64,000 nt of DNA, from IMG/VR virus record IMGVR_UViG_3300029953_000001; one strand, given 5' to 3'. This document shows, piece after piece, positions 563-26,355 of the stretch (positions are counted from its first letter, which is position 1; each line of letters begins with the position of its first letter). The position numbers and the translations under genes are program-made. The notes under the pieces were generated by a model. The model saw only the letters and a program-made list of their open reading frames with translations. It was not told where the DNA came from and made no database searches. Source of the stretch: a virus.

Positions 563-2248
563 CTATCCCTTATTACTCACGGCGTCGATAATCTGACGGA
601 TGATTGCTCCCGAATTCTCAAACAAAGCGAGTAGGCCGGGGTGGAAATGACCGGGGTGCTCCTCAACCTCATACTTAAGGTCTTCCAAAGAGAACCATTT
701 AATCTCATCGGTCTCGTCCGCGAAGTCCAAGTTGGCCGAGCCACCCGGCATCGGGTTCAGGCCGAACTCAGTGGGCACGAGGCCGAGGAAGTTGAAATAC
801 CTGAATGACCCATCGGTGAAGACGAAGGCAGGAATGAGACGAATACCGCCCTTGTAACCAACCTCTTCCATCATCTCGTGTCGAGCACTCTCAGCCGGGG
901 ACTTGCCCTTCTGGATACCGCCCCCGATGGTTCCCCAGCAGTCCCCACCATTCATCTCAGCGTTACGCCAAGCCAAACAGATGCGACCCGTGGTCGTGCA
1001 GATAGGGAGAATACCTGAAGCTGCACCCCCGGCACCAACCCAGTAGCCGTTCTCATCTTCGTAACCCTTTTTCACAGTCGATGTCTTAGACTGGGCCTCG
1101 TTACCGTCTGGGGTGTTGTCTTCGCCTTCTTCAAGCTGCTCGTTCTTCTCGTCGTCCGGCGTGAGGTCGGTGGTCGGGTTGACTTCGGTTTCAGATGGTT
1201 CGATAACCTCATTGCCCTGCTCGTCCACAGCTTCCGCCGCGTCAGAGGATTCAGGGATGTCTTCCTTGTCGAGAATTGTCCAGTCGATGTAGTAAGTCGG
1301 AACCGGGTAGTTGCCTTCCTTCAGTTCTTCAATCGAAGGGAAGTCAGAGAAGGACACGCAGCGGCCATCGGTGAACTTCACGACCCACTCTTGCTTCTCA
1401 TCCTTCTCGTTGATGTAGATAGCCATGTCATCGCTGAGGGTGCCGTATGGAGTGAAGTGCTCGTCACCCACGTAGATGCTCTTGGGGATGCCCTTAACGT
1501 TGGTTGTCTTCATCTCAACGTCGTTGTCAAACTTTACCGTAGGAGTGTACTCTGGTCTCGTTGAACCTCGCTTGCCTCTACCTTTGGGGTAGATGGTGTT
1601 GAGCAATTCATTCTTGAAGCTACCACCCCCCAGAGGAATCGTGGCGGTGGGCTTGCCCCACTGGTCGTACACAATGAGGTACATTGGACGCGGCTGATTC
1701 TTGATGGTGCGGCTGCGGAAGTTCTGAATGATCTTACGTGCATCCTGCACCGTAGTCTTGGACGGCTTGTCGTAAGTCAACTCCAAGTGACGAACCGTCG
1801 GTGGACGCTTGAGTGTCTTTCCTGAAGAAGCGGTGACCACCTTGTCATAGGTTTCATTGACAAAGGACATGGGCAGTTTGAACGTACCTTCGAAGCTCTT
1901 CACGGTCGGGTCTTTGCTGATAGGAGACATGGACTTGTTAGTATCCGCTTCGCCCGTCATACCCTTGAAACAATTCAGCGTGGCAGCATAGACCTGCACG
2001 ATGATGGCTTGCTCGTACCCAGCCGTAATCATGAAGGACGACATCTCGTCAAGCAGCACGTGGATGGCTTCGGCAACAAGACCACTCATCGAGTTTGGTT
2101 TGTCTTCCACCAGCGGGAACTTCATAGAAAACACAGTAAAATTGGGAATTCCGAGGTCAAGGGAGATGAGGGCATAGGGCCGCGCATCTCGTATGATTGA
2201 AATGTCAAGGTTTCCGGTCGCTGGACTTAAGTAAGAGTTCTTATCCAT
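563..2248 (-). CDS. virion-module protein (561 aa) with C-terminal Nudix-fold domain carrying a degenerate Nudix box
   Basis: Last large gene of the minus-strand structural operon. Acidic linker, then GGGIQKGKSPAESARHEMMEEVGY (DNA 854..922), which fits GX5EX7REUXEEXGU with E->K and R->H substitutions. Surrounding beta-strand pattern (GILPI...GRICLAWR...WGTIGGG) is Nudix-like. Confidence 0.7.
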   Translation of the reverse strand: MDKNSYLSPATGNLDISIIRDARPYALISLDLGIPNFTVFSMKFPLVEDKPNSMSGLVAEAIHVLLDEMSSFMITAGYEQAIIVQVYAATLNCFKGMTGEADTNKSMSPISKDPTVKSFEGTFKLPMSFVNETYDKVVTASSGKTLKRPPTVRHLELTYDKPSKTTVQDARKIIQNFRSRTIKNQPRPMYLIVYDQWGKPTATIPLGGGSFKNELLNTIYPKGRGKRGSTRPEYTPTVKFDNDVEMKTTNVKGIPKSIYVGDEHFTPYGTLSDDMAIYINEKDEKQEWVVKFTDGRCVSFSDFPSIEELKEGNYPVPTYYIDWTILDKEDIPESSDAAEAVDEQGNEVIEPSETEVNPTTDLTPDDEKNEQLEEGEDNTPDGNEAQSKTSTVKKGYEDENGYWVGAGGAASGILPICTTTGRICLAWRNAEMNGGDCWGTIGGGIQKGKSPAESARHEMMEEVGYKGGIRLIPAFVFTDGSFRYFNFLGLVPTEFGLNPMPGGSANLDFADETDEIKWFSLEDLKYEVEEHPGHFHPGLLALFENSGAIIRQIIDAVSNKG

Positions 2249-10483: not shown

Positions 10484-13102
10484 TCACTTCACAATGTGAA
10501 TCAAACCGCCGCTGATGTTGTGGGTGTAAATGCGTGCATTGGGCTTCTCCCCGGCGGCAAAATTCTCATTGCCGATAAAGAGACGTGCCACACGCTGATG
10601 ACCTACACACTGGATACCCACCACCTTTGACCACTCAATCACGTCATCCACATTGGTAAGTACGTGCATTCCTACTTGGATTCCCCCAGCAAATGCCGGA
10701 AGATCGTCCAACCCTACGCCCGGAACTTCCGTCCGTGCGAGGATTTCCTGCGTTGGTACCGGTGTAGACTCAGAGACAATAACAGCGGCACCATTCTCCG
10801 CCTCTAGCCGATAGCAGATTTCCGTGCTGAACTCCATCCACTGCACAGGCAAAAGGCTGTGTTCGGAGTAGTGAACGATGGCATCCAAGTGCGTACCCAC
10901 AGTAACCTCCGCTACCTTCAAGTCTGGTAGAACAAACATTGTCACGGCAGGGCATCCCCCTCCCCCTCCACCACTACCACTCAGAGTGTAGGCTACCGTC
11001 GTAGTATAAGTGCAAGTGAGATTGCTGACATTATCCGTAGCAATGAAGCCAAAATAGTCTCCGGGGGCGGTGTTAACATAGGTATTCGGGTTAAACGTTA
11101 ACTGGAATGTTTGGAGGTACCCGCTAACGCCATTGATAATGGCACTTGCTGAAGTTACAGGGGTGGATGAGCTACCAATTACCGTCTGAGTAGACTGACC
11201 CACATATTGAGTGAAAAAGTTAACCCCCACCGGGTCACTCCCTCCGGCTGTGAACATCTGAGCCGTAAGGGTCATAGACGTTACTGTCGGGGGGATAAGC
11301 GTGAGACTCGGGGTTACCGTCATGCCTACAGCTACCGGAGCCACATAGGAAGAACCTGCGGCGGTGATAGTGCCCACTTGACCGCTTATATATGAGACTG
11401 TATTAGTCACAAAGGTATCGTTGCTCAGGTAGGTAAGGGTGCCATTCACTGTCATGTTCACAGTGAGGGTCTGGTTGGTGGTGGCAGCGGGAGCCGTGAA
11501 TGGTATATTCCAACCTGTGAGCCATCCCGCCGAGTCAAGCACCGGGCTGGGGGTACCAGTGGAAGTAGCACCTGAAATCGTACATGAGGCATTAACGCTG
11601 TTGCCTGTGTTCTTGGCACCCTGCTGCTGGGGAGAGAACGCCTTGTTCAGAGCGACAGACAGCGTATAGCTTCCCCCATCAGCCGGAATGCTGGTCGGCG
11701 AGAGGGAAGCAACCTGAGGCATATTCATATAATCCACTTCGATGTTGAAAGAGACACCACCATTGGTGCCGGACACAGCGAATGTGTCAAACGTGGTGGA
11801 CGCATTGTTGAACCAAGCAATATCATCAGCTTGAACCACGAGGCTGGTGGACAGAACGCGAGAGGAAGATGAGGGGTTAGCCGTGTTCCCGTTGTAGTTG
11901 ACGGTGAAATTGGTACCATCATAGTTCACTCCGAACAACCCTTGATACGCGGTGTTATCCGTGGAGGTCAGAGCAAGAACTGCCTTCGCCGCTGCCGTCT
12001 TGTTCACCGGACTCCCGTTATACGTAGGGAAGGTAAACGTCGGGTTGTTAGGGTCATTATAGAGGTACAGTTTTCCCGTCGTACCCTCAAGCACAGGGCA
12101 ATAGGACTTAGTGGGGTACACGATGCCAGACACGTTGACCGTGAGTGTGATGGGCTGACCCACGACCTGAAGGTTAGTTGCACCACCACCGGGGGTGATA
12201 GTCACGTTGCCGACAGGAGTTGCAGGAGCCGGAGCAGCGATGAGGGTTACCGGGGCAAGTTCGCCCGAACTTGTGGTGATGTGAAACACGCGACCGGAGT
12301 GGTACCAATAATCCCAGTCACCTTCAATGGGATAGACCCCCGCCTGTGAAAAAGTAACCGCTACAGTGCTTGAACCTACATATCCCCCTGAACCGCTATT
12401 CTGAGCAGCCGGGAGAATAGGCAGACCTAACGCAACCGTTTGATTTTGACCAAGGGCGGCTAGGGTGATCCCCTTTCCTGCCCATGTGGGGGAAGCACCC
12501 GTTGCGGAGTTGCCAATACCCCACATGACACCATCCTTATAGGTGATGTTAAAGGTATAGGTACCGGGAGCCGGAACTAGGATACTACCAACAATGCAAC
12601 AGTTGAAATTTGATCCGTAAGGTGGAAAATTGGTGTAGGCGGTCTGTTGACCAGCGGTGTTGAAGCTAGACCACTGGGGACCTGAGCCCCCGGAGTCCCC
12701 CCCAATGTACGCACTGAAAGCGAGGGAATTGTTGGTCTGAGTCGCCGAGGCGGTAGATATGGTACGAATCGTGTTTCCTGATGGGTCGCTGGCATTTTTC
12801 CAGATGTAACCAGCCACGGGACCTGAGGTAGGGGAGTCATTCCACGCATAACATGTAACAACGCTGCCAACCTGTATGATGCCATTGGTTTGCTGCCAGT
12901 TGACCGAGGCGGAGTTGGTGGTGTAGTTGCTACCAGCGATGGTTGCTGTTCCCTGAAGAGTATCTGAACCGCCATTAGTGCCCGTGTATGTAAGCGTGGT
13001 CGAGCCGGTGCCCAAGTTAGTGTCCACGGGTATAGTAACCGGTATGGTCTGGGGGTTAGCCCCACCAATGACGACATTTACTGTTTCGTACTGAGTTCCC
13101 AT
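10484..13102 (-). CDS. tail fiber protein (872 aa) with C-terminal Hint (intein/hedgehog-like) autoprocessing-type domain after a Gly6 linker
   Basis: Fibrous N-terminal 700 aa. Then GGGGGG-CPAVTMFVLPDL ... RLFIGNENFAAGEKPNARIYTHN-ISGGLIHIVK (DNA about 10517..10954): Gly|Cys junction as in hedgehog GCF, intein block-F/G-like NFAAG...THN near the C-terminus. Confidence 0.7.
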   Translation of the reverse strand: MGTQYETVNVVIGGANPQTIPVTIPVDTNLGTGSTTLTYTGTNGGSDTLQGTATIAGSNYTTNSASVNWQQTNGIIQVGSVVTCYAWNDSPTSGPVAGYIWKNASDPSGNTIRTISTASATQTNNSLAFSAYIGGDSGGSGPQWSSFNTAGQQTAYTNFPPYGSNFNCCIVGSILVPAPGTYTFNITYKDGVMWGIGNSATGASPTWAGKGITLAALGQNQTVALGLPILPAAQNSGSGGYVGSSTVAVTFSQAGVYPIEGDWDYWYHSGRVFHITTSSGELAPVTLIAAPAPATPVGNVTITPGGGATNLQVVGQPITLTVNVSGIVYPTKSYCPVLEGTTGKLYLYNDPNNPTFTFPTYNGSPVNKTAAAKAVLALTSTDNTAYQGLFGVNYDGTNFTVNYNGNTANPSSSSRVLSTSLVVQADDIAWFNNASTTFDTFAVSGTNGGVSFNIEVDYMNMPQVASLSPTSIPADGGSYTLSVALNKAFSPQQQGAKNTGNSVNASCTISGATSTGTPSPVLDSAGWLTGWNIPFTAPAATTNQTLTVNMTVNGTLTYLSNDTFVTNTVSYISGQVGTITAAGSSYVAPVAVGMTVTPSLTLIPPTVTSMTLTAQMFTAGGSDPVGVNFFTQYVGQSTQTVIGSSSTPVTSASAIINGVSGYLQTFQLTFNPNTYVNTAPGDYFGFIATDNVSNLTCTYTTTVAYTLSGSGGGGGGCPAVTMFVLPDLKVAEVTVGTHLDAIVHYSEHSLLPVQWMEFSTEICYRLEAENGAAVIVSESTPVPTQEILARTEVPGVGLDDLPAFAGGIQVGMHVLTNVDDVIEWSKVVGIQCVGHQRVARLFIGNENFAAGEKPNARIYTHNISGGLIHIVK

Positions 13103-13112
13103 TTAGCCCCTC

Positions 13113-16100
13113 TTATACAATTTGCTGCGGAAATGCATTTGTGGCAGCGGCACGTAGAACCCCGTTATTGAAGACATCCCACTGAAAGGTTCCTGTAGCC
13201 GATACGCCTGAATCCACTACCGTAATACCGAACGCATTATTGCCAGTGACACCTGAAGCGAACGGGCCGGAGATACGGATGTAGGCGATTCCGTTATTCA
13301 GGGAGTCAACGCTGGCGGTGAAGACAGAGTTGCTGAGGGTGATATTGCTTGCCAATGTGGCAGCGTTCGTGGTGACCACCCCTGTAGCTACCACATAGAA
13401 CGAATGGTTAGGACGCGGGTTGATGGAATCCGTGCTGCCGTTGTCCACGTACCCGAGATAATTAGTCGTAATGCTGTCTGTATAGTCAATACCCGTTTGC
13501 AAGGTGAGACCGCTAACCACAGTTACAGTGAACGACTTTTCAGCGAAGGCACCATTCGTGTTGTCTGTGACGCGGAACGTAATCGACTTACTAAAGCCTG
13601 TCTGTGTCGTGACCCCCGTGATGGTTCCTGTGCTGTTACCCAGAGACAGACCGGATGGAAGGGGGCTCGATGAGGCCGGTGAAAGTGACCAAGAGTAATT
13701 ACCCGAACCCCCCGTAGCCGTCAGCATCTGGCTGAAGGTGCGGCCAGACGTAATCTGATTGATGGAGGCAGTTGTGATGGATAGACCTGAGGGCTGAACC
13801 ACCAAATTCAATGCCGCCTGCGCGAGAGGAGCCAGAGGGTAAGTGTCCCCCAAGCTATCGGTCACCGTGAACACTGGAGTACCATTGAACGTCGCACCTG
13901 TCGCACCAGTAATGAGTCCCCCTGAAGACATGGAGTAGCCGCTCGGAAGTGAGCCTGTGTAACTCCATGTGAAGGGGGTGTTATAGCCGGTCGCGGTCAA
14001 CTGGTAGTTGTAGCTGGCCGTCACCGTACCTACAGGTAAAGCTCTTGTAGTGATGGTAAGGCTCGATGTGGAGTTAAGAATGATGAATGCCTGAGCCGAT
14101 GAACCCAAAGAGTCCACTGTCTGCACTTTGATTGAGTAGTTGTCTAGCAGAAGAGTAGTGACGCCAGAGATGAACGCCGTTGTGCCACTATCGGCTGCGT
14201 TAGCCTGAATCGTAAGACCCGACGGGAGCGCGTTAGGACTATCAGGGGTCACTTGCCATGTGTTCGGTGTGGTGAATGTACCAAACGCACGGAGCGTACC
14301 CTGATAGGGTCCGCCACGATCAACAGGACCGACGCCCGATGTGTCTATGACCATGGCCGAAGTTCCGGTCTGAAGGGAGTAAGTCTTAGAGTCTGTATGG
14401 CCTGCGCCCCCAACTGTGTCAACTACACCGATGGTGACGGACTGAATATATGAGGTCACGGATGTGACACCGGAGAAAATGCCTGTTGATGGGTTGAAAC
14501 TTATACCGCTGGGCAACGCAGGACCGGTGAGAGACCACGTATAAGGAGGTACGCCGCCAGTAGCCGTCATCTGGTAGGAGTAGGGCTGACCGGGGATAAT
14601 CTTCGGCAGGTTTACGGTTGTGATTTGCACGTTGTTGTTGATGGCAAGAAGCAGAATTGCCGAAGTCGTGACACCACGAGCGTCTGTCAAATCAATAATC
14701 AAATTCTGACTATATGATGAGTTGGTTGGCGTGCCAGAGAGCAACCCAGCCAAATTCAACGTCATGCCAGTGGGTAGAGCGGGAGAGCTTGCATCGAGCG
14801 ACCACGCATAAGGAGTGGCACCCCCAAATCCCTGAAGCACAAATCCGGCGGAATTGTTGTAGGGTTGACCTGTGACTGCTGTAGGTAGGGTTGTTGTGAG
14901 GATGACAAGCGGGTTGATATAGTTAACCACGAAGCGGTGATAGAGATATCCACTCTGACCATTCTGGTTGGTAACACGAAACCACAGGTCGAAATAACCG
15001 GCCTCAGTGGGAGTGCCTGTGATATTGATAGCAGTCCCGCCCACGTTGGGCGACAAGGATATCCCAGCCGGGATTCGACCCCGATAAACGGAGGCAGCAG
15101 TCAAAGGTACCGACGATGCAGAACCGATAGTGGATGAGTAGGTTTGTTGAACAAACCCATCGGCAATATTATCAATGAGAGAAAAGGCGTTCTGCTGTGT
15201 GTCCCATGTGATGGTGACTGTACCATGAACTACGCTGGTCAAGTCGTAATATTCGATCACACTCTGACTGGTCGCGATGCCCACGATAGTTCCGTAGATA
15301 AGACCTGTGTTGGCGTCAAGGGATAACCCCAAAGGGAGGGACGACCCCGACTGCACGCGGGACAAGAGGGTGCTGGCCGTGGCAATGGACGGTGAGTTGA
15401 CCCATGGCTTGAGCGGGTTAAGCCCAACGAAGTCGCCAACAATGTACGGGCGAGTGAAGCACTGGGTATTTCCAATGTCAGTGGTACCATCATGGGAGAC
15501 CAGTGTATATTCACGAGTGATGGTTGCAACCTGATTGTTCCCTTGAAGAATCGGGAGTTGGATGTACACCTGACTGTTCGAGAACGAGGTAGGAGGCCCT
15601 GTTACCGTAACAACGTCATTCACACCATCAACGGTCGCGGTCAAACCGTTAGAACCCGAAATGGGGGTGGTTGTCGTACTGATACTATAGCCGGACAAGT
15701 TACCCAAGATGGGGAGAACAATAGTTGTGGTGTCCGCCGTCCCCCAATAATGGTCGAACGCGAACTGGTCGAGGAAGATGGTGCTAATGGGGTCATCCGA
15801 CTGATAGCTGAAAGCTTGAGTCAGTGAGGTTGCTGTATTGTCAGTAACCTTGAGGGTGAACTGATGCACACCCGCCTTTTGGGCAGGAACGGTGACGATA
15901 ACTTCCACCTGACCGTCCACCAATGCAGCGACCTGAGAGTTCACAGCCTGAATCTGAAGAACCTTTGAGGTCACCTTACCGAGACTGTCAGTAGCTTTAA
16001 TCCCAACCGTCCAAGTTCCATAGTTACTGAAGGTGAAGTTCAAGTTGTTGCTGGTGTCGATAAGGACACCGGGGAGGGTGGTAACCGTGTTCAATAGAGA

Positions 16101-16448
16101 CCACACAACCGTACCTGTACCGCCGTTACTGGTTAGAGGGACAACCTGAACTGAAGGGAAGCTGGTTGGCTCAAAGTTCTGTGAACTGTTCAGAATCGAA
16201 AACAAGGTAGGGTCAACCACAAGGACAGTGAGGACCTCATCCGCTGTGTTAAGATTCGAGTCGGTGATAATCACATGGAGTGTGTACGTGCCGGGGCTCA
16301 ACGAGGTTGAATTGATACTCAAGACCGCACCCGTCACGCTGAATGAGCCATTCGGTAGCGATGTTTTTGGGTCAGACGAGGGTGTGATAAAGGTGTAAGG
16401 TGCTACACCCCCAACTCCGGCTAACGTTGCTGTTGTAATGATGGACAT
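13113..16448 (-). CDS. giant adhesin-like fiber protein (1111 aa) with tandem He_PIG/cadherin-like putative Ig domains
   Basis: Repeated ~90 aa units containing the motif Y(T/A)WSL...(A/P)LP(S/T)G(I/M/L)(S/T)(F/L)N..(S/T)G.(I/L).G(T/V)(P/T), e.g. GGVPPYTWSLTGPALPSGISFNPSTGIFSGVTS, GGATPYAWSLDASSPALPTGMTLNLAGLLSGTPT. Confidence 0.8.
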   Translation of the reverse strand: MSIITTATLAGVGGVAPYTFITPSSDPKTSLPNGSFSVTGAVLSINSTSLSPGTYTLHVIITDSNLNTADEVLTVLVVDPTLFSILNSSQNFEPTSFPSVQVVPLTSNGGTGTVVWSLLNTVTTLPGVLIDTSNNLNFTFSNYGTWTVGIKATDSLGKVTSKVLQIQAVNSQVAALVDGQVEVIVTVPAQKAGVHQFTLKVTDNTATSLTQAFSYQSDDPISTIFLDQFAFDHYWGTADTTTIVLPILGNLSGYSISTTTTPISGSNGLTATVDGVNDVVTVTGPPTSFSNSQVYIQLPILQGNNQVATITREYTLVSHDGTTDIGNTQCFTRPYIVGDFVGLNPLKPWVNSPSIATASTLLSRVQSGSSLPLGLSLDANTGLIYGTIVGIATSQSVIEYYDLTSVVHGTVTITWDTQQNAFSLIDNIADGFVQQTYSSTIGSASSVPLTAASVYRGRIPAGISLSPNVGGTAINITGTPTEAGYFDLWFRVTNQNGQSGYLYHRFVVNYINPLVILTTTLPTAVTGQPYNNSAGFVLQGFGGATPYAWSLDASSPALPTGMTLNLAGLLSGTPTNSSYSQNLIIDLTDARGVTTSAILLLAINNNVQITTVNLPKIIPGQPYSYQMTATGGVPPYTWSLTGPALPSGISFNPSTGIFSGVTSVTSYIQSVTIGVVDTVGGAGHTDSKTYSLQTGTSAMVIDTSGVGPVDRGGPYQGTLRAFGTFTTPNTWQVTPDSPNALPSGLTIQANAADSGTTAFISGVTTLLLDNYSIKVQTVDSLGSSAQAFIILNSTSSLTITTRALPVGTVTASYNYQLTATGYNTPFTWSYTGSLPSGYSMSSGGLITGATGATFNGTPVFTVTDSLGDTYPLAPLAQAALNLVVQPSGLSITTASINQITSGRTFSQMLTATGGSGNYSWSLSPASSSPLPSGLSLGNSTGTITGVTTQTGFSKSITFRVTDNTNGAFAEKSFTVTVVSGLTLQTGIDYTDSITTNYLGYVDNGSTDSINPRPNHSFYVVATGVVTTNAATLASNITLSNSVFTASVDSLNNGIAYIRISGPFASGVTGNNAFGITVVDSGVSATGTFQWDVFNNGVLRAAATNAFPQQIV

Positions 16449-16459
16449 CCGTTTTCCTC

Positions 16460-19400
16460 TTAGCTGCTGATAACTACGGTGATGTTCTCGGTGATAGGTT
16501 GCGTCGGTTGAGAACCCGGACCTAATGTACTGATACCCAAATTGTCCACAACCCGCAGAGCTACTGCGATGGTGTAGGTACCTATAGAGGGCGGGGTGCT
16601 GATGGGTACAGTAAAGCCTCCAATAGGCGTAAGACTCTGATTCACATCCGGTACGTTTGAAGGTGAACCCGTGAGATTGTACGCCAGCACCCGGTTGGTT
16701 GGAGACACAGTGATAAATGATGCCAGACCGCTGGGAACCGTAACCGAATCAACGTAGTAGTTAGCCGGGGCGTGGAAAAGCTGCGGTGAGGACATGAGAG
16801 AGTTTGGCGTCTTGGAAGCAACTACAGCACTTGACAGGCTGATAGCCCACGTGTAGGGAGAGAAAGCCACAGAGATGTAGCTCTGAGCCACAACCGTAAC
16901 CTGAAGCTGACCCGTCACAGTGGTGGAGTTTGCAGCCGAGTCCGTGACCACAACAGTAACGTTGCAGTTATATGGTGTGGTGTTTGCCGCGAACTGAGCA
17001 ACCGTAATCTGCAAGGCAGCGGTGGATGTGCCGTTGTTGATGGCAACGAAGCGGGAGTCGCTCACACCCGATATGTTGTAGGTGTAAGGAGCGTCACCGC
17101 CAGAGACAGTGAGGGGTAGCGATAGAGTTTGGGTGACAATGTACTCGCTGACCGACACCGGAACCGTGGTGCCGTTTGCCTTGAGGGCGGAAAATACTTC
17201 GGAGAGGGTAAGGCTGTCCGGGAAACTTACGTTATTGAAGGACAGTGTGTCGGTACCTGCACCGGTCGGGAAGTAGTCGTAGCTCATAGTGAACCCATCT
17301 GGAGTCACGCTGCTGTTGCCCGTGGTGGGCTGTCCGCCAATGGTTAGGGTGGGGTTACCCAGAGTTGCAGTACCCAACGTGTTCTGCAATAGGGGGAGAC
17401 CGGTGTCACCCGGCTGGAACCCAGTGTACTGAGCCGAGATAATGGAATTGTTGTTGACCACACGATATTGCGTGCCAATCGTTGCCGTCGCCCCAACGTG
17501 AGCCGGGGCGATAATGACAGCGGCTTGAGCACGGACGGCGAGATTCACAACAACGCTTGCCTGAGTGCCAAACGTGACCGAGGTCGCGGTGATGGTAATT
17601 GGGGTTGAGGAGACCACACCAGTCGGAGTGCCTTGCAGGTATACGCGGGTGCCCGGAGCAGACGACAGGGTGACGCCAGCCGGGAGACCCGTGGCTGTCC
17701 AGTTTGAGATGAGGTCGGCGTCAACATAGTAACTGTTGACCGGAATCAACCGGTTGACATAGACGTAAGCCGGAATATTGTTATCCAAGATGTGAGTTGG
17801 CTGAGTCGTAGATTGAGCAACCTTTACAGTGATAGGGGTTGCCGCTGACTGAACGCTGTTCTTGTCCGTAACCACAACCAACACAGTGTACGAACCTGTC
17901 GTGGAGGTTGAGGAGGAGAAGGCCGAAAACCCTCCGATGCTTACCCCCGTACTGATGGTAGGGAGCGTTGTACCGCTCTGAATGCTGAAGGAATACGGAG
18001 CAGTGCCGCCTCCAGCAATGAGGGGGTATGCCCAGCTATAAGCACCTATGGCATCCGCTGTCAAAGTGTTTAGGTCAAGGTTGATAGCGTCAGTGAAAGC
18101 AAGAGCAACCACCGGAGTTCCCGTTCCTCCACCACCAACATTCAAACTGAAACGCTGTGCTGTGCTCACAGTGGCATTGACCGAGTTGACAATACCCGCA
18201 AGCTGGAACTTGAAGCTGTAACCAGCAGAGGTTGTCGGAGTACCTTCAAGTAGGAGGATGCAGTCAGCACCAGCACCCGCGACCGTGTTACCGCTGGCGA
18301 ACGTCATACCAGCCGGGAGAACGCCGGGGCCGATGAGGCTGGCGGTGCAAGCCGCGTTGGGAGCGTTGGTCAACTGAATCGTGCCGTTGTTAAGAAGAGC
18401 GACACAGTAGTATTGGCCTGAGCCCGGAGTGTAAGGCGTACTGATAACAGGGTCGGGGTAGCCACTCGCGAGGGGGGTGAACGTCCAAAGGGTTGGAGAT
18501 GTAGGATGACCGTTTGTGTTGACGGAGTAGGCACCTAGGGTGTATTGACCTGAACCCTGCTGCTGAACTGTGATAGTCATTGGCAGAGAGGCGATATGAC
18601 CCACGGAGTCAACCACTTTAACCGTGACAGTAAAAACCCCGTTCGCAGTCGGCGTGGCAACCAGCAAAGGTCCGTAGCAAACCGCCCCCGGAAGAGTGTT
18701 GCTTGCGGTGGGGTCAACGTAGAACTTATAACGCTCGTCGGTATCCAAGCCGTTTGCGTTAGAGGGTACACCACCAGTAGCTGTCAGCGTGATTGCAATG
18801 TTCTGCGGGTAGAGCGACGGGTACACTGTAGTATTCGGTGCGTTGAGGAAGGACAGTATAGCCGGAGTCACCCCTGCAACCACGGACATCTGGGTTGGGC
18901 TGACAATCGCCAACCCGGTACCGATGATACCGTCGTCGGTGAAGCTATTCAAGGTGTAAGGGGACTGACCCCCATAGACTGGAACAGCCAACTTGAACTG
19001 TTCCCCCGCGATGATGAGTGGCTGGTTCAACAGACCGTAGGAGAGCTTGGCTGGGGAGAGCAGGATGCTGTAGGTGGCTGATGCCTTAGCTCCGATGGCG
19101 TCCGTAACCTGAACTGTGAAGGTATAGGTCTTGAGGAAGTCAGTAGTCGAATTGTAAGTGCAGGGTACACCACCGAGCGTCCCGGAGTTGGCATCAATGG
19201 CGAGACCAATAGGAGCCGAACCAGCAACAATAGCCCATGTGTATGGAGCCAAGCCCCCCGTGTTCTGGATAACGATGGGCTGTGGGCTGTTGGGATTGGT
19301 GTAGTTCTCATAGGGGGTACCAACGGTAGCAGAGGGCAGAGTCGTGGTGGTAATCGCCAAGTCGGTCGGTATAAGGAAAGTCAACGTGGTCTCAGCGATG

Positions 19401-22400
19401 TACGCAGGGCTGCTGGCGTCCATGACAGCGAAGACGACAGTGAATGTGCCAAGCTGGGTTGGAGTGCCGCTGATGGTACCATCAACGTTCATCTTCAAGC
19501 CCGGAGGCATACCTTCGGTGTACCAACTGTAGTTGGTATTGCCTCCCGTCGCTTGCATCTTGAATTCAGCCATCGGCTTGCCAACGTACGAGTTCGAGGG
19601 CAGAGTCGTAGTGGTAATCTGCACCGGTACCGAAGAGGTGGCGGGGTTGACTTCAAGAATGTACGTTGGTTCGATGAGTTCCTTTGCATGGGGACGACCC
19701 TGCATCGGGAACACGTCGAGTGCCATGGTGCTCAACAGGGAGCTTGCATTCGCAAATCGCGAAGTCGCAACCATGAGCTTGAGTTCATTTGTAATCTCGT
19801 CACGAGCGATAGAGCGAACAACCACTTCATACGCCTGTGGTGTCACAGTGCCTGTGGAGGCGTTCGTAATTTCAAAGCCAGCATTACCCCCAATGCCTAG
19901 CGTGCCAGTGAGGGCTCCCTGAGCGGCTGCGGTCGGGTTGAACTGCTGGTCGATAACATAAACCTGCTGTGTCAACTGGCGACGGAGCTTGACCGGTGGG
20001 TTAGCCGTTCCGAAGTCGTTCTGCGTCTGGATGACAATGTTCTGGGCACCAGCCGTGGTGAAGGACTTGGCGACGGTGCGAGTGCTGAGGGGCAACCAAC
20101 CCGTGGACGTGTTGTCTGGGAAGATAACCTGCCATGCGCTGGCTCCAGCATAGTTGGCATTCAACGTGATGTTGAGCGTCTGACCCAGCAACAGGTTCGT
20201 GTTGTCAAACGTGACGTTGGTAGCCAACAGGGCAGTCGGGAATGTGTGGCTAGAGTCCCATGGGTTAGAGTTGAGGGCAACCGTGAAGTCACTCGACAAC
20301 GCCACCATGTTCATGGAGTAGTCGCCAGAGACCAAGGTCTCTTCGAAGACACGGGCGGAGACCGTACCGCCATTGTTCAACCCTGTATCAAATACAGTTA
20401 TAGGAGTTCCACTACCCGGAGGCGTCTGAAGCGTGATGTTCCAACCTTTGTATGCGGTGTACGCTCCGCTCACAGAATACGGTTGCCAGTTGGCCGTCAG
20501 GTGGAAAGTTTCATCAATGACAGCGATGGTTGGAGCCGGGAGGAGGTTCGTGGCCGAGGCGATAGAGCTTGAAATGACAATCAACGGTACTGAGTACGCA
20601 TTGCCGTAGAAGCTGGTGCCATAGACGCTGTAGACGGCGGAACCAACCTGCTGCACTGATGCCGAACCTGCACCAGTCACAGTGCGAATTGGAGTCGGGG
20701 ATGGAATCTCCGCGAGAAACAGTCCCGTGGGTGTGCCGGAGATGCCCCATGCGATAGTGAACGATGTGTTGTCCGGTATCGAAATAGCGGTGGAAGTTGG
20801 ATTGGTAATCTGCAACGGAATGGCGACAGCCGCCACCGTCATGGTGATGACATCACTGTAGCTGGTTTGGTAACCAAATGCCGATGCGGCGACAACAAAC
20901 TTGTAGGTTCCCGGTGTGAGTGCGTTACCCACTATCTGATTGGAGCTATTGATATACAAACCATCGGGAGCACCGAGAACCCCTGAACCGAAGACTGGGT
21001 CGCCAACCAACTCGAACGTGGCACTGACCGGGGTCGATGATAATTGAATCGGGGGGATGGGGATGCCCGTGGAAGAGTTGATGGTGGTAGGGGTACCCAC
21101 AATATCCAGAGGAGCGGGACCATCGCACTTGAACAGTACCTGTGCGTAGCCTTGACGACCCGGAGGGCTCCCGGAGTTAGTCGCTGCAATGGTGAGCGTC
21201 CACTTCTGCCCAATCTGCCCGTTAGCCGGGAAGTGGAAGGTGACTGTGGTGGTGGGTGTCCCTGAACTGATAGTCAGACCAGTGTTGGTTACAGTCGCAG
21301 GGGATTCCAGCGAAGATGCAGCGACGGCATTCACCGTGAAGATGAGGCTTTCGGCTGGGTTGAACCCATCAGGGGAGGAAAGGGTGTAAGTGACTGTAGT
21401 CCCCGCCGCACCGACCGCGTAATCAGGTGTCCCTGATGTTGTCGCTAGTCCAATCTTGATAGCCGAAGATGACAGCCACGAGGTGTTACTGGTAGATACC
21501 TCATTAAAGTTAATGATCTTGAGACCATTGTTGACTGGAAGCCCGTTGTTATCGAACACCTGAAGGTTCACAGATGCGGGGGCATTACCGTAGATGCTGT
21601 AGGTGGCAAACTTGTTAGTGCTATTTCCGCCGCCGCCCGAGTTCAAGGACAAGGGTCCGGTGGAAGCCCAGTAATAAGTTAGGGGCTGAGCAACTGTTGC
21701 ACCGAGTGATTGCAACGTACCCAACAGAACGTCAATCTGTGCATCCACATGCAGCAGGTTGCTCACAGTGTCGTAGTAGGCACCAGCCGCGAAGTCCAAG
21801 GTACCAGCGGCCTGACTCTGAGAGCTTACCGATAGTGTAAGTTGGTAAGCACGGGCGGGGGTATCGTAGAATGAACCCGGCTGGTATGCAAGAATCGTGA
21901 TAGGCACAGCGACGGGCGACTGAGCGAAGCTGGGAGCGGTTCCGTTTAGCTGGAGACCACCAACAAGGTCAGTTGAGGTGAAAGGTGTGCCGGAAAAGTG
22001 AGGAGGCGATACACGCAGTGCAAGCTTGGTCTCATCCGATGTGACGAACTCCAGTCCGGCTGGAAGGCTGGAAGGCAGGATGAAGCTGATGCCGGTTTGC
22101 GGGGAGTTGAACAGACCGTAACCTTGAATAAGAACATCGGCTACCGTGCTGTCATAGGACGGGATAAGTAGGGTGGTTCCATTAACCACTGGGTTGCTTG
22201 GATTGGCGGCAACGTAGAAGGGAGTGCGGACTTCCAAGTAAATCGGAAAGTTGGTGGTGCTTACACCATCAGTGACGGAAACAAAGAACTCGTAGGGGTC
22301 TTGCTGATATTGTGCGCCTGAGAACGTGATGGCACATACAGCCCCGTTGGGAGAAACATTAATCCACGAGGGTGCGCTTCCGCCAAGAGACCAAGTGATA

Positions 22401-22546
22401 GCGCCCACCTGTCCTGATACAGTCAAGGAACCAAGGGTGTCCGAGGCGAGTGATGCGACACGGACGGCCAGACCACTGGCGTTCTGTGCCAGTGGCATGA
22501 CTGAGTTGGCATTGTTGGCGAAATTTGTAGTGAATGTAAGGCTCAT
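16460..22546 (-). CDS. giant adhesin-like fiber protein (2028 aa) with many Ig-like (He_PIG/BIG-type) repeats
   Basis: 6.1 kb ORF. Many repeats with the LP.G(L/M)..... G.ISGTPT signature (e.g. YSWYTEGMPPGLKMNVDGTISGTPTQLG, YTWAIVAGSAPIGLAIDANSGTLGGVP). Confidence 0.8.
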   Translation of the reverse strand: MSLTFTTNFANNANSVMPLAQNASGLAVRVASLASDTLGSLTVSGQVGAITWSLGGSAPSWINVSPNGAVCAITFSGAQYQQDPYEFFVSVTDGVSTTNFPIYLEVRTPFYVAANPSNPVVNGTTLLIPSYDSTVADVLIQGYGLFNSPQTGISFILPSSLPAGLEFVTSDETKLALRVSPPHFSGTPFTSTDLVGGLQLNGTAPSFAQSPVAVPITILAYQPGSFYDTPARAYQLTLSVSSQSQAAGTLDFAAGAYYDTVSNLLHVDAQIDVLLGTLQSLGATVAQPLTYYWASTGPLSLNSGGGGNSTNKFATYSIYGNAPASVNLQVFDNNGLPVNNGLKIINFNEVSTSNTSWLSSSAIKIGLATTSGTPDYAVGAAGTTVTYTLSSPDGFNPAESLIFTVNAVAASSLESPATVTNTGLTISSGTPTTTVTFHFPANGQIGQKWTLTIAATNSGSPPGRQGYAQVLFKCDGPAPLDIVGTPTTINSSTGIPIPPIQLSSTPVSATFELVGDPVFGSGVLGAPDGLYINSSNQIVGNALTPGTYKFVVAASAFGYQTSYSDVITMTVAAVAIPLQITNPTSTAISIPDNTSFTIAWGISGTPTGLFLAEIPSPTPIRTVTGAGSASVQQVGSAVYSVYGTSFYGNAYSVPLIVISSSIASATNLLPAPTIAVIDETFHLTANWQPYSVSGAYTAYKGWNITLQTPPGSGTPITVFDTGLNNGGTVSARVFEETLVSGDYSMNMVALSSDFTVALNSNPWDSSHTFPTALLATNVTFDNTNLLLGQTLNITLNANYAGASAWQVIFPDNTSTGWLPLSTRTVAKSFTTAGAQNIVIQTQNDFGTANPPVKLRRQLTQQVYVIDQQFNPTAAAQGALTGTLGIGGNAGFEITNASTGTVTPQAYEVVVRSIARDEITNELKLMVATSRFANASSLLSTMALDVFPMQGRPHAKELIEPTYILEVNPATSSVPVQITTTTLPSNSYVGKPMAEFKMQATGGNTNYSWYTEGMPPGLKMNVDGTISGTPTQLGTFTVVFAVMDASSPAYIAETTLTFLIPTDLAITTTTLPSATVGTPYENYTNPNSPQPIVIQNTGGLAPYTWAIVAGSAPIGLAIDANSGTLGGVPCTYNSTTDFLKTYTFTVQVTDAIGAKASATYSILLSPAKLSYGLLNQPLIIAGEQFKLAVPVYGGQSPYTLNSFTDDGIIGTGLAIVSPTQMSVVAGVTPAILSFLNAPNTTVYPSLYPQNIAITLTATGGVPSNANGLDTDERYKFYVDPTASNTLPGAVCYGPLLVATPTANGVFTVTVKVVDSVGHIASLPMTITVQQQGSGQYTLGAYSVNTNGHPTSPTLWTFTPLASGYPDPVISTPYTPGSGQYYCVALLNNGTIQLTNAPNAACTASLIGPGVLPAGMTFASGNTVAGAGADCILLLEGTPTTSAGYSFKFQLAGIVNSVNATVSTAQRFSLNVGGGGTGTPVVALAFTDAINLDLNTLTADAIGAYSWAYPLIAGGGTAPYSFSIQSGTTLPTISTGVSIGGFSAFSSSTSTTGSYTVLVVVTDKNSVQSAATPITVKVAQSTTQPTHILDNNIPAYVYVNRLIPVNSYYVDADLISNWTATGLPAGVTLSSAPGTRVYLQGTPTGVVSSTPITITATSVTFGTQASVVVNLAVRAQAAVIIAPAHVGATATIGTQYRVVNNNSIISAQYTGFQPGDTGLPLLQNTLGTATLGNPTLTIGGQPTTGNSSVTPDGFTMSYDYFPTGAGTDTLSFNNVSFPDSLTLSEVFSALKANGTTVPVSVSEYIVTQTLSLPLTVSGGDAPYTYNISGVSDSRFVAINNGTSTAALQITVAQFAANTTPYNCNVTVVVTDSAANSTTVTGQLQVTVVAQSYISVAFSPYTWAISLSSAVVASKTPNSLMSSPQLFHAPANYYVDSVTVPSGLASFITVSPTNRVLAYNLTGSPSNVPDVNQSLTPIGGFTVPISTPPSIGTYTIAVALRVVDNLGISTLGPGSQPTQPITENITVVISS

Positions 22547-22557
22547 TTTTTATCCGT

Positions 22558-25500
22558 TTACGAAAGCAAGGTTACTGTGTTAGAAGATGAGTCGGCGGTA
22601 ACACCGCCCAAAAATGGATTGGTTAAAATAGTTCTAGCCAGTGTTGAGTTCGCCGAAAGAACTGCGCTACCGTTAGTCTGGAAGTCCGATGTGACAACAA
22701 TACTGGAATTGAACTCCACCTGAGCAACTACGGTTGAAGCGTTGATGTTTACTTCCGACACAGTGTCCGTCGCGTGGTTCGAAAGATTGAGGGTTGAGTT
22801 ACGCTCACCAACGAAGAACGAGCCGGGGGTAGCCCCTGAGTCTACTGACAAGTCAACACCCGAAGCGGTAATCTCCGAGGAGCTTGCAACCATACCTACG
22901 CCACCATCCGGGAGCCCAATTGATCCACCATCGAAGATGGCATTGCAACCCTGCGAGAAGGCACCGGCCTGAAGATTCTCAGTGAAGATGCAGTTTACAA
23001 AGTCAACGTCCGCATCAATGCAGTAAACAGCGGGGTCGCGGAACCCGTTGAAGGTGAGGTTGTTGAAGATGACTCGGCTATTATCCACAAAGAATGCGGA
23101 GGTTGGACCGTTGCCAAATCCAGCGAAGCCCGTTGCATCAATCACAATATTGCCCGTTGCCCCGGCCACTGAAGTAATAACCAAACGTCCACCGTCCTGA
23201 ATGGTGTAAGCAAGATTACCAAGAGCGTAGTAAACCGCTGAACGAATGTCGCCATCGCCCAAAGCAATTTCCTGAAGTGTGCTCTGGAGATTCTGGATGG
23301 AGTATGGCGTATTAGTCTCCACCAGTTGTACCGAGCAGGGATGACGAAGCACTGGAGGTAGTACACTGAGAGCCGCTGTGATAGTGAGCTTCGGGTTGGT
23401 CAAGCTGAGACCATCGTTGGTGTCGAGCCCCGACACATTATTGACATACAAAATAATAGGAGCAGTGGTGCTCTGAAGGTTCTGCCCCAATACTGTGCGA
23501 GGCGAGGGTGCTGTGATGGCATAGCCCACGTGGGGGATAGCCTGAGAGAAACCGCGTCCTCCACCTGTCGTCGTAATGAACCTAAGTTCCTTGCGGAAGT
23601 CCTTGTTCATCGGTGGAATAAAGTCGTTGGTGTGAAGCGGTACCTCGAAGGTGTGCTCCACATTGTTCTGACGCATCGCCACATAGTTCGAATCGAACAC
23701 CGAGGACAGCGGTGTGTTCGTCAATGTTGCATCCGACCAGTTGACCAGAGAAGGTAGAGTCGTAGCAATCGGAATCTCGCGGTTGTAGGGGTACACATCC
23801 TCAAGACCAACCACAGGTGCGGCACCAGAGCCGTTAGTGGTCACCAATGCCGTCTCATCATTATGGATGATTTCATAGTTACGATTCAGCACACCTTCTC
23901 CCTGATACGGGATGTATTGCTCCACAATCGTTAGGGTTGAGTTTTGGTCAAATGCCGGGAGGATCGAACCGGTAAAGAAAAACTGGGTTCCATTAGCGAT
24001 GGAATAATTACCAATCACAGTGACCGTGACCACTCCATTGTTGAAGTTCACAGTGGAGCACTGTACGGAGTTCAGGTTACCCTCTAGATCGAGAACCCAA
24101 AGGTAACGGGTTGTGTCATTCCCGCTAATCCCCTTGATGATGCAGTTGTTAGCCGCCGCCACAATCGTGGTGAGGTTGGTGATTGCGTTGTACTGAGCAA
24201 CCTCAATCGTGACACGGCTGTCCATTGGAAAGTTATTATCGGTCGTGTAGTTGCCGAACAACACCGTTTCTTCAATCTCTGTCACACCTTTAACCGGAGC
24301 GTTGTACACAAGTTGTGCCGTATCTTGCGCTAGAAAACTCATGACCAAGGTCTGCGTGTTGAGAATTACGGCTGCAAGGGTAACAACACACTGGTTGCCC
24401 TTCATCGAACACGTGGTCTGATAATAAGTGCCTGACGCCAAGTCCCAAACACGAGTCGGATAGAGCCCTGCAACCTTACCATTGAGACCAGTGCGAGTGA
24501 TGGTGAACGTGGTGGATGTCCCCCCTACAGTTCCCGATGAGCCGGGAATCTGTACCCAAATCTTAGTACCGAATATGATATTTGAGTATTCAGGATTGAC
24601 CGCCCACACCTGATAGGCGTGGGTTGTCAGCGACTGGTTCTGTACGTCGTACTCCGAAATCCCATACACTGGGAGCGTCTTACCCGAGATAGCATCCGTG
24701 AGGGTTCCACCATCCACAGAGATGGGGGTCTTACGCAGGTCAACGCCAGAGTCGGCGGGGTACTGAACGCCTACCGTGCAATAGATGTTCTGAGCACCGG
24801 GGTCAAAGGGGGTGCCTTGAAGGTTCTTAATGAAGCTCACAGTGACTGACTTTGAACTGAGACCGCTAATCTGTACCTGTCCAGAGAGCAAGTTGATGGG
24901 TGATTCAAGGTTATTAGCAAGATTGAATCCCTGAACCGCAGCCGATACAATCGTACCCTGAGATTGGGCTGGGAGTGACACTGTGAAAGCATCACCCATC
25001 TTCCATGGACCGCCCTGAGCACTGGAAGCCAACCAGAACGACTTTTGATTGATGGGAATCTTCTTGGTTACATAGAACGTGCGGAGGTCGGAACTAAACC
25101 CGTTGGAAAATCCATCCCAATTCGTTGGGAGTGTATTCGTGTTGGGAACCGCAATCGGACCAACCGAAACGTAGTAATCGAGGGTGGAGCCTAGAGCTTC
25201 TGTCTTGAGACCAGAGCCATCCCCGCGACCGATTGCTGAGCGACCATTACCCGTTATAAGGTCAACAAACCCCTCGCGCATCAGCTTATCCAAATCCCAC
25301 GAGTCAAGAGTTACAGTTTGACGGGTGTCAACCACATCCTCTTGAAAAATCTGGTCAGCCAGCTTAGAGTCGAGGCGACCAGAGACACCATATTTGAGAA
25401 GACCAGAATTCTGAGTCGCAGCGTCCCCACAGCCAAAGATGTTGCTTGCTAGGCTGAAGGGACCATAGTTACGCTGGAACATAACAGCCATCGGCATGGC

Positions 25501-26355
25501 GTAAGTGTACCCATCCATGGTTCCCATGGAGTTGTTGATGTTGCCGTCACCAGCTTGCCACAGACCGGTGTCCCCATTCACAGAGCCCATATTGGTGAAC
25601 TCGTAGATTGGGTCAACGATAGGAGCCTGATTGGTGGCTGTCCCCTGTCCGTACACAATCTCTGTGGGCTGAGCACCGGGGTCAAGACCAAACTGATACT
25701 TCGTGAAGTCGTAGGTCAACGCCACACGCTGAATGTTGAACCGCCACTGAATCTGAGAACGGATAGTGGTGAGGAGACCTGCCCCTGTGGAAGAGGTCGC
25801 GAAGATATCCACCGAATCATCTGGCATAATCTCTGCGTTCACTGGATCAGGCGATGTGCAACCATAGGGGTAGAAGTAGCGAAGCTGTGATACTGGGTCG
25901 AGGTAATAGCCTTGACCGGTGGTTGGGTCGAGTGATTGATACCATATTTCGAGGAAGACAACGTAGAGACGAGCGTCTTCGTCGGTAACACCATTTGTCC
26001 AGAATGCTGGTTGCTGAGCCGGAGATAGGGTGATGCGATTCTGTGTGAGGTCGGCGGAGTTGAAGCCTTGAATGGACACAACCTCGCCATTGAACAGAAC
26101 GTCGAAGGACGGGATGATGAATGTGTTGGGGACGAAGGGGCTGTACTGGAACGCTGCATAGGTCAAGCAGCCAGAGGTTGCCGACTTGTTGTCGAGCAAC
26201 AGGTGCCGCTTGTATGACTGTAAATCTTGAAGGGCATTTAGATCAGCGTCCGAAATTTGGTGGTCATGCAAAGCTACAATTGAAAGAAGAGACCGACCCG
26301 CGACATCCAGAGTTCTGGAAACCACTGATGGATATTGGAATGTGCTCGTTGCCAT
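22558..26355 (-). CDS. tailspike protein (1265 aa) with C-terminal right-handed parallel beta-helix (pectate-lyase-like depolymerase) domain
   Basis: C-terminal 400 aa shows beta-helix rung periodicity with Asn/Gly/Val/Ile ladders (NVSGLDTNDGLSLTNPKLTITAAL ... FNNLTFNGFRDPAVYCIDADVDFVNCIFTEN ...). First large gene after the zinc-ribbon ORF. Confidence 0.7.
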   Translation of the reverse strand: MATSTFQYPSVVSRTLDVAGRSLLSIVALHDHQISDADLNALQDLQSYKRHLLLDNKSATSGCLTYAAFQYSPFVPNTFIIPSFDVLFNGEVVSIQGFNSADLTQNRITLSPAQQPAFWTNGVTDEDARLYVVFLEIWYQSLDPTTGQGYYLDPVSQLRYFYPYGCTSPDPVNAEIMPDDSVDIFATSSTGAGLLTTIRSQIQWRFNIQRVALTYDFTKYQFGLDPGAQPTEIVYGQGTATNQAPIVDPIYEFTNMGSVNGDTGLWQAGDGNINNSMGTMDGYTYAMPMAVMFQRNYGPFSLASNIFGCGDAATQNSGLLKYGVSGRLDSKLADQIFQEDVVDTRQTVTLDSWDLDKLMREGFVDLITGNGRSAIGRGDGSGLKTEALGSTLDYYVSVGPIAVPNTNTLPTNWDGFSNGFSSDLRTFYVTKKIPINQKSFWLASSAQGGPWKMGDAFTVSLPAQSQGTIVSAAVQGFNLANNLESPINLLSGQVQISGLSSKSVTVSFIKNLQGTPFDPGAQNIYCTVGVQYPADSGVDLRKTPISVDGGTLTDAISGKTLPVYGISEYDVQNQSLTTHAYQVWAVNPEYSNIIFGTKIWVQIPGSSGTVGGTSTTFTITRTGLNGKVAGLYPTRVWDLASGTYYQTTCSMKGNQCVVTLAAVILNTQTLVMSFLAQDTAQLVYNAPVKGVTEIEETVLFGNYTTDNNFPMDSRVTIEVAQYNAITNLTTIVAAANNCIIKGISGNDTTRYLWVLDLEGNLNSVQCSTVNFNNGVVTVTVIGNYSIANGTQFFFTGSILPAFDQNSTLTIVEQYIPYQGEGVLNRNYEIIHNDETALVTTNGSGAAPVVGLEDVYPYNREIPIATTLPSLVNWSDATLTNTPLSSVFDSNYVAMRQNNVEHTFEVPLHTNDFIPPMNKDFRKELRFITTTGGGRGFSQAIPHVGYAITAPSPRTVLGQNLQSTTAPIILYVNNVSGLDTNDGLSLTNPKLTITAALSVLPPVLRHPCSVQLVETNTPYSIQNLQSTLQEIALGDGDIRSAVYYALGNLAYTIQDGGRLVITSVAGATGNIVIDATGFAGFGNGPTSAFFVDNSRVIFNNLTFNGFRDPAVYCIDADVDFVNCIFTENLQAGAFSQGCNAIFDGGSIGLPDGGVGMVASSSEITASGVDLSVDSGATPGSFFVGERNSTLNLSNHATDTVSEVNINASTVVAQVEFNSSIVVTSDFQTNGSAVLSANSTLARTILTNPFLGGVTADSSSNTVTLLS

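Follow-up and report, generated by a model that had tools for sequence, protein, structure and literature searches.

A Hint-fold domain with a single-lysine tail at the C-terminus of a phage baseplate-module fibre protein: a candidate autoprocessing cassette

The DNA analysed here, referred to as the window, is a 64,000-nucleotide (nt) stretch of IMG/VR virus record IMGVR_UViG_3300029953_000001. Its minus strand encodes, at positions 10484-13102, an 872 amino acid (aa) protein that ends in a Hint-fold domain. The domain starts with a Cys directly after a run of six Gly and closes with His-Asn (HN), and it is followed by a short tail whose last residue is Lys. Related domains cap phage tail proteins that otherwise have little in common, and the first Cys and the terminal HN do not vary among them. 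The domain probably cleaves its N-terminal junction by thioester chemistry. Whether it goes further is a more tentative matter, but it may be a self-excising cassette resembling the bacterial intein-like (BIL) domains, with the tail Lys serving as a built-in acceptor. The parts of the gene and protein are as follows.

10484-13102, minus strand: whole gene, 872 aa, baseplate-module fibre or host-recognition protein; stop codon at 10484-10486
10973-13102, minus strand: aa 1-710 (shaft with head), the "cargo" to which the Hint domain is fused
10955-10972, minus strand: Gly711-Gly716 linker, with Gly716 as the -1 residue of the predicted scissile bond
10517-10954, minus strand: predicted Hint-fold autoprocessing domain, Cys717-Asn862, 146 aa
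10952-10954, minus strand: Cys717 (Cys1), predicted nucleophile of the N-S acyl shift, invariant in 117/117
10814-10816, minus strand: Cys763, domain position 47, second conserved Cys (100/117)
10760-10774, minus strand: block B equivalent, Ser777-Glu-Ser-Thr780-Pro781, from the gp41-1 intein alignment
10583-10585, minus strand: Arg840, domain position 124, block F:4 position, R/K/H in 100/117
10517-10525, minus strand: block G Thr860-His861-Asn862, with H and N invariant in 117/117 and Asn862 predicted to cyclise
10487-10516, minus strand: C-terminal tail ISGGLIHIVK, disordered in the model; last residue Lys872 (10487-10489)

The translation of 10484-13102 ends with ...RLFIGNENFAAGEKPNARIYTHN862, then ISGGLIHIVK872 and the stop, and the Hint-bearing segment makes up the last 156 residues. 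An original prediction, made from the nucleotide letters and their open reading frames (ORFs), had described an 872-aa fibre with Gly6 followed by Cys717 and an ISGGLIHIVK end. This layout is correct, and the coordinates it gave for the domain, 10517-10954, are exactly the codons of Cys717 to Asn862. Short ORFs in other frames or on the opposite strand of the gene found no support.

The 156-aa segment was used in a phmmer search of 1.84 billion representative proteins. There were 131 matches (cluster representatives) at E<=1e-3, 34 of them at E<=1e-10, and nearly all start at the Cys and stop at the HN, a few residues short of the protein end. Since this many matches share the same Cys-to-HN bounds, the Hint-like segment is real and far beyond chance. 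The span from Cys to HN has a median of 135 residues (116 representatives with both ends), and the members average about 30% identity in a 117-sequence alignment. Single-sequence searches with the domain and with the whole protein gave nothing meaningful in Pfam, PHROGs, NCBIfam, PADLOC or the PDB sequences, and a word-indexed homologue search produced 0 matches with the sequence and 2 with the profile.

A profile of 79 domains was then searched against the PDB sequences. Inteins are at the top, with gp41-1 at E 3e-5, followed by the DnaE, DnaB and CDC21 mini-inteins. The gp41-1 alignment is in register: the family THN falls on the intein THN, NFAAG on block F and S-x-S-T-P on block B. Thus the resemblance of NFxAG....HN to intein blocks F and G, pointed out in the original prediction, is borne out by the alignment. 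Structure modelling gives the same picture. AlphaFold (AF2) with a 77-sequence alignment yields a model with a predicted local distance difference test score (pLDDT) of 92 and a predicted template modelling score (pTM) of 0.86, the last eight residues being disordered (pLDDT <50); from the single sequence the pLDDT is 33. The top 50 Foldseek matches in the PDB are all Hint folds, among them inteins, hedgehog (1at0), a BIL domain (2lwy) and BUBL BIL2, and the best structural matches in BFVD are the same uncharacterised phage proteins that are listed below as carriers (template modelling score about 0.8). On this predicted model, the assignment of the C-terminal domain to the horseshoe-like, all-beta Hint fold is considered secure, and the Hint similarity that had been proposed is recovered by both profile and structure comparison. 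Identity with the Peptidase S74 chaperone domain was considered and rejected. No Pfam signal for it is seen in the window protein or in 77 members, and all structural matches are Hint folds; the domain is distinct from S74, as had been claimed.

The curated Hint families do not cover the domain. Neither the window protein nor any of 77 relatives reaches the threshold of a Pfam intein or Hint model. For Hint (PF01079) one of the 77 members is at E 0.007, which misses the cut-off, and the window protein is unmatched. PT-HINT (PF07591) matches one of the 77 at E 0.03, which is not significant, Hint_2 (PF13403) gives no match at E<=0.1 among them, and PHROGs has no family for any of them. A profile scan of 185,579 bacterial and archaeal species genomes found no relatives of the close subfamily, which on these searches appears to be confined to phage and metagenome data. 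In the openly accessible full-text literature, no paper was found that connects phage fibres, tail tips or receptor-binding proteins with a Hint, intein or BIL domain; in the phiCbK and CBB papers the only inteins mentioned are those of terminase. The domain is rated a distinct Hint subfamily, in a new biological setting and with an unusual catalytic constellation, that belongs to no curated family.

In the 117-sequence alignment Cys1, His145 and Asn146 of the domain are invariant (117/117). The positions conserved in at least 90% of the sequences are Gly20, Gly55, Ser61, Thr64, Pro65, Gly118, Val122 and Gly135, and the residue before the terminal His is T, S or H in 116/117. In the block B region the counts are S61 in 110/117, T64 in 106/117 (Ala in the other 11) and P65 in 115/117. 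Ser61 is placed on the Thr of the block B TxxH by the gp41-1 alignment, and Thr64, which is Thr780 of the window protein, is placed on its His. The sole conserved His in the domain is the block G His145, and hence no choice of alignment can supply a block B His. The block B His is normally important for the N-S acyl shift. The block F:4 residue, an Asp in inteins of class 1 and a Cys in those of class 3, corresponds to domain position 124, which in the phage family is R, K or H in 100/117. The claim of a Hint architecture in the original prediction therefore stands for Cys1 and for blocks F and G, but the block B His is missing, and neither the invariance of the HN nor the conserved tail Lys had been seen. 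A second Cys, Cys763 (position 47), is conserved in 100/117 members. In the model it should lie opposite block B in a beta-hairpin, near the active site. It might act as a relay nucleophile or pair with Cys1 in a redox role, or it might simply be buried.

Upstream of Cys1, at least 4 Gly are found within the 12 preceding residues in 85/114 members, and residue -1 is Gly in 51/116. The longest tether noted is that of RTH11, with 19 consecutive Gly before the domain. The Gly runs of orthologues use mixed Gly codons, and thus the linker is selected at the protein level and is not a DNA homopolymer artefact. A programmed frameshift or slippage at the G-run, which would give a fibre lacking the Hint domain, was also considered and rejected: past the Cys codon, out-of-frame stops show no conservation, and the Gly run is encoded by a mixture of codons.

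Downstream of the HN the protein ends within 20 residues in 118/121 members, most often after 4-6 and usually after 3-8. The residue at +1, which is Ile863 in the window protein, is not a Cys, Ser or Thr in 106/121 members and is one of these three in 15/121. The original prediction had read the missing +1 nucleophile as a sign of a BIL or hedgehog-type domain rather than a splicing intein, and the family as a whole supports this. The tail is also marked by its Lys. A Lys is present in 107/110 short tails, exactly one Lys is found in 109/115, and the first tail Lys is at +3 to +6 in 94/121, typical endings being ...VK or ...KP. Lys accounts for 16.6% of tail residues versus 3% within the domain. 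For comparison, a Lys is present among the last six residues in only 35% of 136 further ORF products (200 aa or longer) encoded in these loci. Longer tails tend to be Pro/Gly tethers ending in a single Lys, such as TQPIPPPGGGGGK, LVPIPPPIPPGGGGGGGK and YKVAQGGGGK (among P0010, P0014 and P0023). From these sequences it looks as if the tail Lys must be presented on a flexible arm.

A small subgroup is distinguished by the motif "FWAGE...ILHHN" (P0037, P0117, P0126 and relatives). It has HHN in place of THN and 15-76 extra residues after the HN, and its members are the only ones with a non-terminal cassette.

The carriers are mutually unrelated apart from being tail or host-recognition proteins, and include lambda gpJ-like, VrlC-like and jumbo-phage baseplate proteins. 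Among 45 full-length carriers the domains found are Phage-tail_3 (9), fn3 (5), Rcc01698_C (3), FNIII-A_GpJ (2) and PA14 (1). The 1738-aa carrier P0041, for example, is a lambda gpJ-like tip protein in a siphovirus tail module of tube, tape measure, gpM, gpL, gpK, gpI and gpJ. Within 50,697 phage records the cassette occurs in only nine: DLP6 "VlrC" (gp267), XacN1 ORF231, LucasX gp306, RTH11, PhiXhv-12, -15 and -16, Ep026 and Ep032. These are large myoviruses on Xanthomonas or Stenotrophomonas, except one Ep026-like record listed on Erwinia, and the annotation of their carriers is either hypothetical or VlrC. The idea of a partner or chaperone gene conserved downstream was rejected, as no similarity was seen among the downstream genes of the window, RTH11, LucasX, XacN1, DLP6 and locus L024.

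DLP6 (L001, KU682439) has two matching genome places in searches with the domains of two other members. The neighbouring downstream gene AAY80_268, also a "VlrC", has no cassette at its end, and the second match must therefore lie elsewhere in the genome. In the window there is no second copy.

The gene of the Hint-bearing fibre is part of a baseplate module. The next gene (228 aa) begins at 10480, 3 nt past the fibre stop codon, and this gap implies one operon. In the order of transcription the module consists of a 1111-aa He_PIG immunoglobulin (Ig)-repeat protein, the fibre gene, the 228-aa gene, a 256-aa baseplate protein (phrog_2669) and a 1323-aa Baseplate_J protein. This order is kept in 14/16 IMG/VR phage contigs recovered with the Hint domain, including contigs of 120-332 kb, and the exact window protein is found on 16 metagenomic contigs. 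The shaft itself shows a weak PA14 match in a Pfam search of the window protein; it has no sequence relative among the PDB sequences, and no fibre family model matches the window protein. The "tail fiber" label used earlier is reasonable from gene context, but it is safer to speak of a host-recognition protein of the baseplate module whose distal modules can be exchanged.

The same module order is found in Tunturi_5, a jumbo phage of Tunturiibacter (Acidobacteriota). The positional orthologue is gp244, a "minor tail protein" (L025 3989-5245), which has the region of window aa 334-589 in common. It is without the Gly linker and without the Hint domain, and ends instead in a different C-terminal domain of about 170 aa. 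At the sequence level, this comparison is direct evidence of the swapping of distal modules on this baseplate protein. Because the same module ends gpJ-like, VrlC-like, fn3 and PA14 proteins, has no conserved partner and is lacking in the Tunturi_5 orthologue, the best explanation of these sequences is a cassette that moves between unrelated tail-tip proteins and needs no partner gene. The Hint part is at least as conserved as the shaft in 13/14 orthologous loci (for example 45% vs 36% in L006 and 40% vs 30% in L013). It is thus not more variable than the shaft, which argues against a variable receptor-binding tip.

The scheme tentatively preferred here, which we put at somewhat under an even chance, would proceed as follows. 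After the fibre folds, Cys717 would attack the Gly716 carbonyl in an N-S acyl shift, and the 716-aa shaft would be held as a thioester. An amine would then resolve the thioester, the preferred candidate being the epsilon-amine of the single tail Lys (Lys872), as in BUBL BIL2. Attack by this Lys would leave the Hint domain attached via its own tail, and Asn862, aided by His861, would cyclise and cut the domain from the tail. The net product would be a fibre of about 74 kDa in its mature form, with the 15.9-kDa Hint domain gone and the Gly6 end capped by a short tail peptide. The calculated average masses are 90,056 Da for the full-length precursor, 74,195 Da for shaft plus tail, 73,177 Da for a shaft ending in Gly716-COOH and about 15.86 kDa for the free Hint domain as succinimide. 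The likely role of the domain would then be to assist maturation or assembly from the C-terminus and be discarded, in functional analogy to the S74 intramolecular chaperone but with different chemistry. If so, a Lys epsilon-amine in a C-extein of 3-8 residues would be the obligate acceptor, and the family may, with the same reserve, represent a new splicing class. A precedent is BIL2 of Tetrahymena BUBL, which is reported to form a K(epsilon-NH2)-C-terminus isopeptide (PMC8616854, section 2.4).

The scheme is favoured because it explains Cys1, the HN and the single-Lys tail together. The HN is invariant despite only 3-8 residues after it, and thus both junctions seem to matter. The invariance of Cys1, His and Asn at about 30% identity argues likewise that both are chemically active, as the invariant HN and the conserved tail Lys together suggest. 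The original prediction suggested that the 716-aa shaft could be cleaved off or transferred, and we likewise infer such a step.

Several points weigh against Lys ligation. The block B His is replaced by Thr780 and the block F Asp by Arg840, and therefore activity cannot be assumed. In the window protein Lys872 is at +10, beyond the position seen in most members, and the tail is disordered in the model (pLDDT <50), so that nothing puts Lys872 near Cys717. What a fibre would gain from a branched peptide cap is not obvious. In the DLP6 and XacN1 papers the carriers appear as VlrC or hypothetical, and no processing is reported, and known BIL domains yield mainly cleaved rather than ligated products (PMC7664689, PMC7765530).

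The last of these points leads to cleavage alone, in which the Gly716-Cys717 thioester would be hydrolysed or thiolysed and the cyclisation of Asn862 would separately drop the tail. The mature end would be Gly716-COOH. The Hint domain would be a cap for folding or assembly that is then discarded, and Lys in the tail would have a structural role or support catalysis. This is the simplest chemistry and draws on the same fold and invariant-residue evidence as Lys ligation. As BIL domains without a +1 nucleophile "produce predominantly cleaved products" (PMC7664689; PMC7765530), the 15.9-kDa domain is by default expected to remove itself. Nevertheless we regard cleavage alone as rather unlikely to be the whole account, since N-terminal cleavage needs no HN and leaves its invariance in 117/117 unexplained. 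Nor does cleavage alone account for the retention, in about 95% of members, of a tail of 3-8 residues bearing a single Lys. A stronger departure is that the Hint fold stays unprocessed on the virion, co-opted as a non-catalytic structural or binding tip. In its favour, gpJ-like proteins normally bind the receptor with their C-terminal domain, as established for lambda gpJ, and the block B His and block F Asp are missing. Nor is processing reported for any member (DLP6 and XacN1 papers). It is hard, however, to explain without catalysis why exactly three catalytic positions are invariant at about 30% identity. The domain is also no more variable than the shaft, unlike receptor-binding tips, and a flexible poly-Gly tether (up to the 19 Gly of RTH11) is an odd mount for one. 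A retained tip is accordingly judged improbable.

Transfer of the shaft to an outside nucleophile in the manner of hedgehog, through Gly716 to a hydroxyl or amine, would attach it either to a virion protein, locking the fibre covalently into the baseplate, or to some host-envelope component. Both the Gly|Cys junction and the position at the C-terminus are those of hedgehog, and the domain lies at the distal end of gpJ-like tip proteins, which are the first to touch the host. But only 3-12 residues follow the Hint module, with no extension resembling a sterol-recognition or substrate-binding region, there is no conserved partner gene, and hedgehog-type domains do not keep the C-terminal HN, which the phage family always does. 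Such transfer is thus given little credence. Slightly more remote is a latent thioester "warhead" carried on the virion at the distal end of fibres or gpJ-like tips. The Gly-Cys thioester would be resolved by a nucleophile of the host envelope (an amine or hydroxyl of a lipid, of lipopolysaccharide or of a surface protein), the Hint domain would drop off, and the fibre would be tethered covalently and irreversibly to the cell, with hedgehog chemistry used for adsorption. Finally, Cys1 and the terminal HN are those of class 1 inteins, and the nearest PDB sequence relatives are phage-type mini-inteins (gp41-1), as would be expected of an ordinary selfish mini-intein near the 3′ end of fibre genes that splices out to restore the native C-terminus. 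This is scarcely credible, given that only 15/121 members have a +1 Cys, Ser or Thr (Ile here), that no homing endonuclease is found, and that the domain sits at the end of hypervariable unrelated proteins instead of in a conserved site, usually after a Gly-rich linker. The intein models of Pfam stay below threshold in all 77 members.

The known routes by which phage receptor-binding fibres mature are separate chaperones and the self-cleaving S74 chaperone domain. If the reading preferred here is true, a Hint cassette working through a thioester would add a third route with chemistry of its own. The cassette is modular, a unit of roughly 140 residues that caps lambda-J-like tips, T4-like VrlC proteins and jumbo-phage baseplate fibres. 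The Hint superfamily is widened to a phage structural-protein context and to an active site in which block B has no His, and the one Lys conserved in the tiny C-flank may mark isopeptide-forming splicing outside the ciliates. Annotation and expression of fibre genes are affected as well, as some 16 kDa of the ORF product may be absent from the mature protein. Because Pfam, NCBIfam and PHROGs do not detect the family, it is labelled "hypothetical" in isolated phages such as DLP6, XacN1, LucasX and RTH11, which can be grown. The cassette could also supply small self-cleaving or self-ligating tags.

Other features of the window lie around the module. Upstream of the fibre gene, 13113-26355 (minus strand) is occupied by very large structural ORFs. 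The 1111-aa product has four Ig repeats of the He_PIG type, and the two largest products, of 2028 aa and 1265 aa, received no family assignment. Ig-like segments recur among the 902-aa, 1111-aa and 2028-aa proteins of the window and in related loci. At 26355-26741 (minus strand), between large structural genes, is a 128-aa HNH-endonuclease-like ORF (phrog_374, E 2e-30). In L009 and L012 related sequence is found elsewhere, lodged between the baseplate genes of 228 aa and 256 aa, and this suggests a mobile element that hops within the tail module. At the end of the structural gene block, 563-2248 (minus strand) encodes a 561-aa protein with a C-terminal NUDIX domain (E 2e-11).

When the domain is set beside known systems, its likeness to Peptidase S74 chaperones (endosialidase, T5 pb1) is one of functional analogy only. 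These are C-terminal fibre domains thought to aid assembly and then remove themselves, but their fold (helical and triple-beta-helix, with a Ser-Lys dyad) and chemistry are unrelated to Hint. As in the HINT superfamily generally, the first residue is Cys (117/117), although the TxxH of block B is not found. Class 3 inteins differ in that the phage domain has Cys1 and, at F:4, Arg, Lys or His (100/117) in place of Cys, and so does not show the WCT motif. Class 1 mini-inteins (gp41-1, PDB 6qaz) are the closest sequence relatives with a solved structure. Blocks B, F and G are in register, the size is about 130-150 residues with no endonuclease, and the terminal His-Asn is shared. However, those inteins have a +1 Ser, Cys or Thr, a block B His and a block F Asp, sit in conserved sites of replication proteins, and splice to a linear peptide bond.

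Hedgehog (Hog-Hint, PDB 1at0) also has its Hint module C-terminal to the cargo, with a junction like Gly716|Cys717. The phage domain, with only 10 residues following it, is without the sterol or adduct-recognition region, and PF01079 is unmatched; it has the invariant terminal His-Asn that hedgehog lacks, and a Thr in place of the block B His (His72 of HhC). B-type BIL domains (Hint_2) are set apart by the C-terminal HN motif that the phage family keeps, and PF13403 is unmatched. BUBL BIL2 of Tetrahymena (PDB 6y75/6tmm) is eukaryotic and flanked by ubiquitin-like domains, finds its acceptor Lys in a folded downstream domain or in other proteins, and retains the catalytic block B His (His69); no sequence relationship to the phage domain is detectable. 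From A-type BIL domains (PT-HINT, PDB 2lwy) the phage domain differs in having no significant PT-HINT sequence match (1/77 members, E 0.03) and no block B His, in residing in phage tail proteins and not in bacterial secreted proteins, and in its place at the very end of the protein, with a Lys tail of 3-8 residues, instead of before a toxin or variable domain. Yet the descriptive definition of the A-type (PMC7765530) fits the phage domain: Cys1, a C-terminal His-Asn and no +1 nucleophile.

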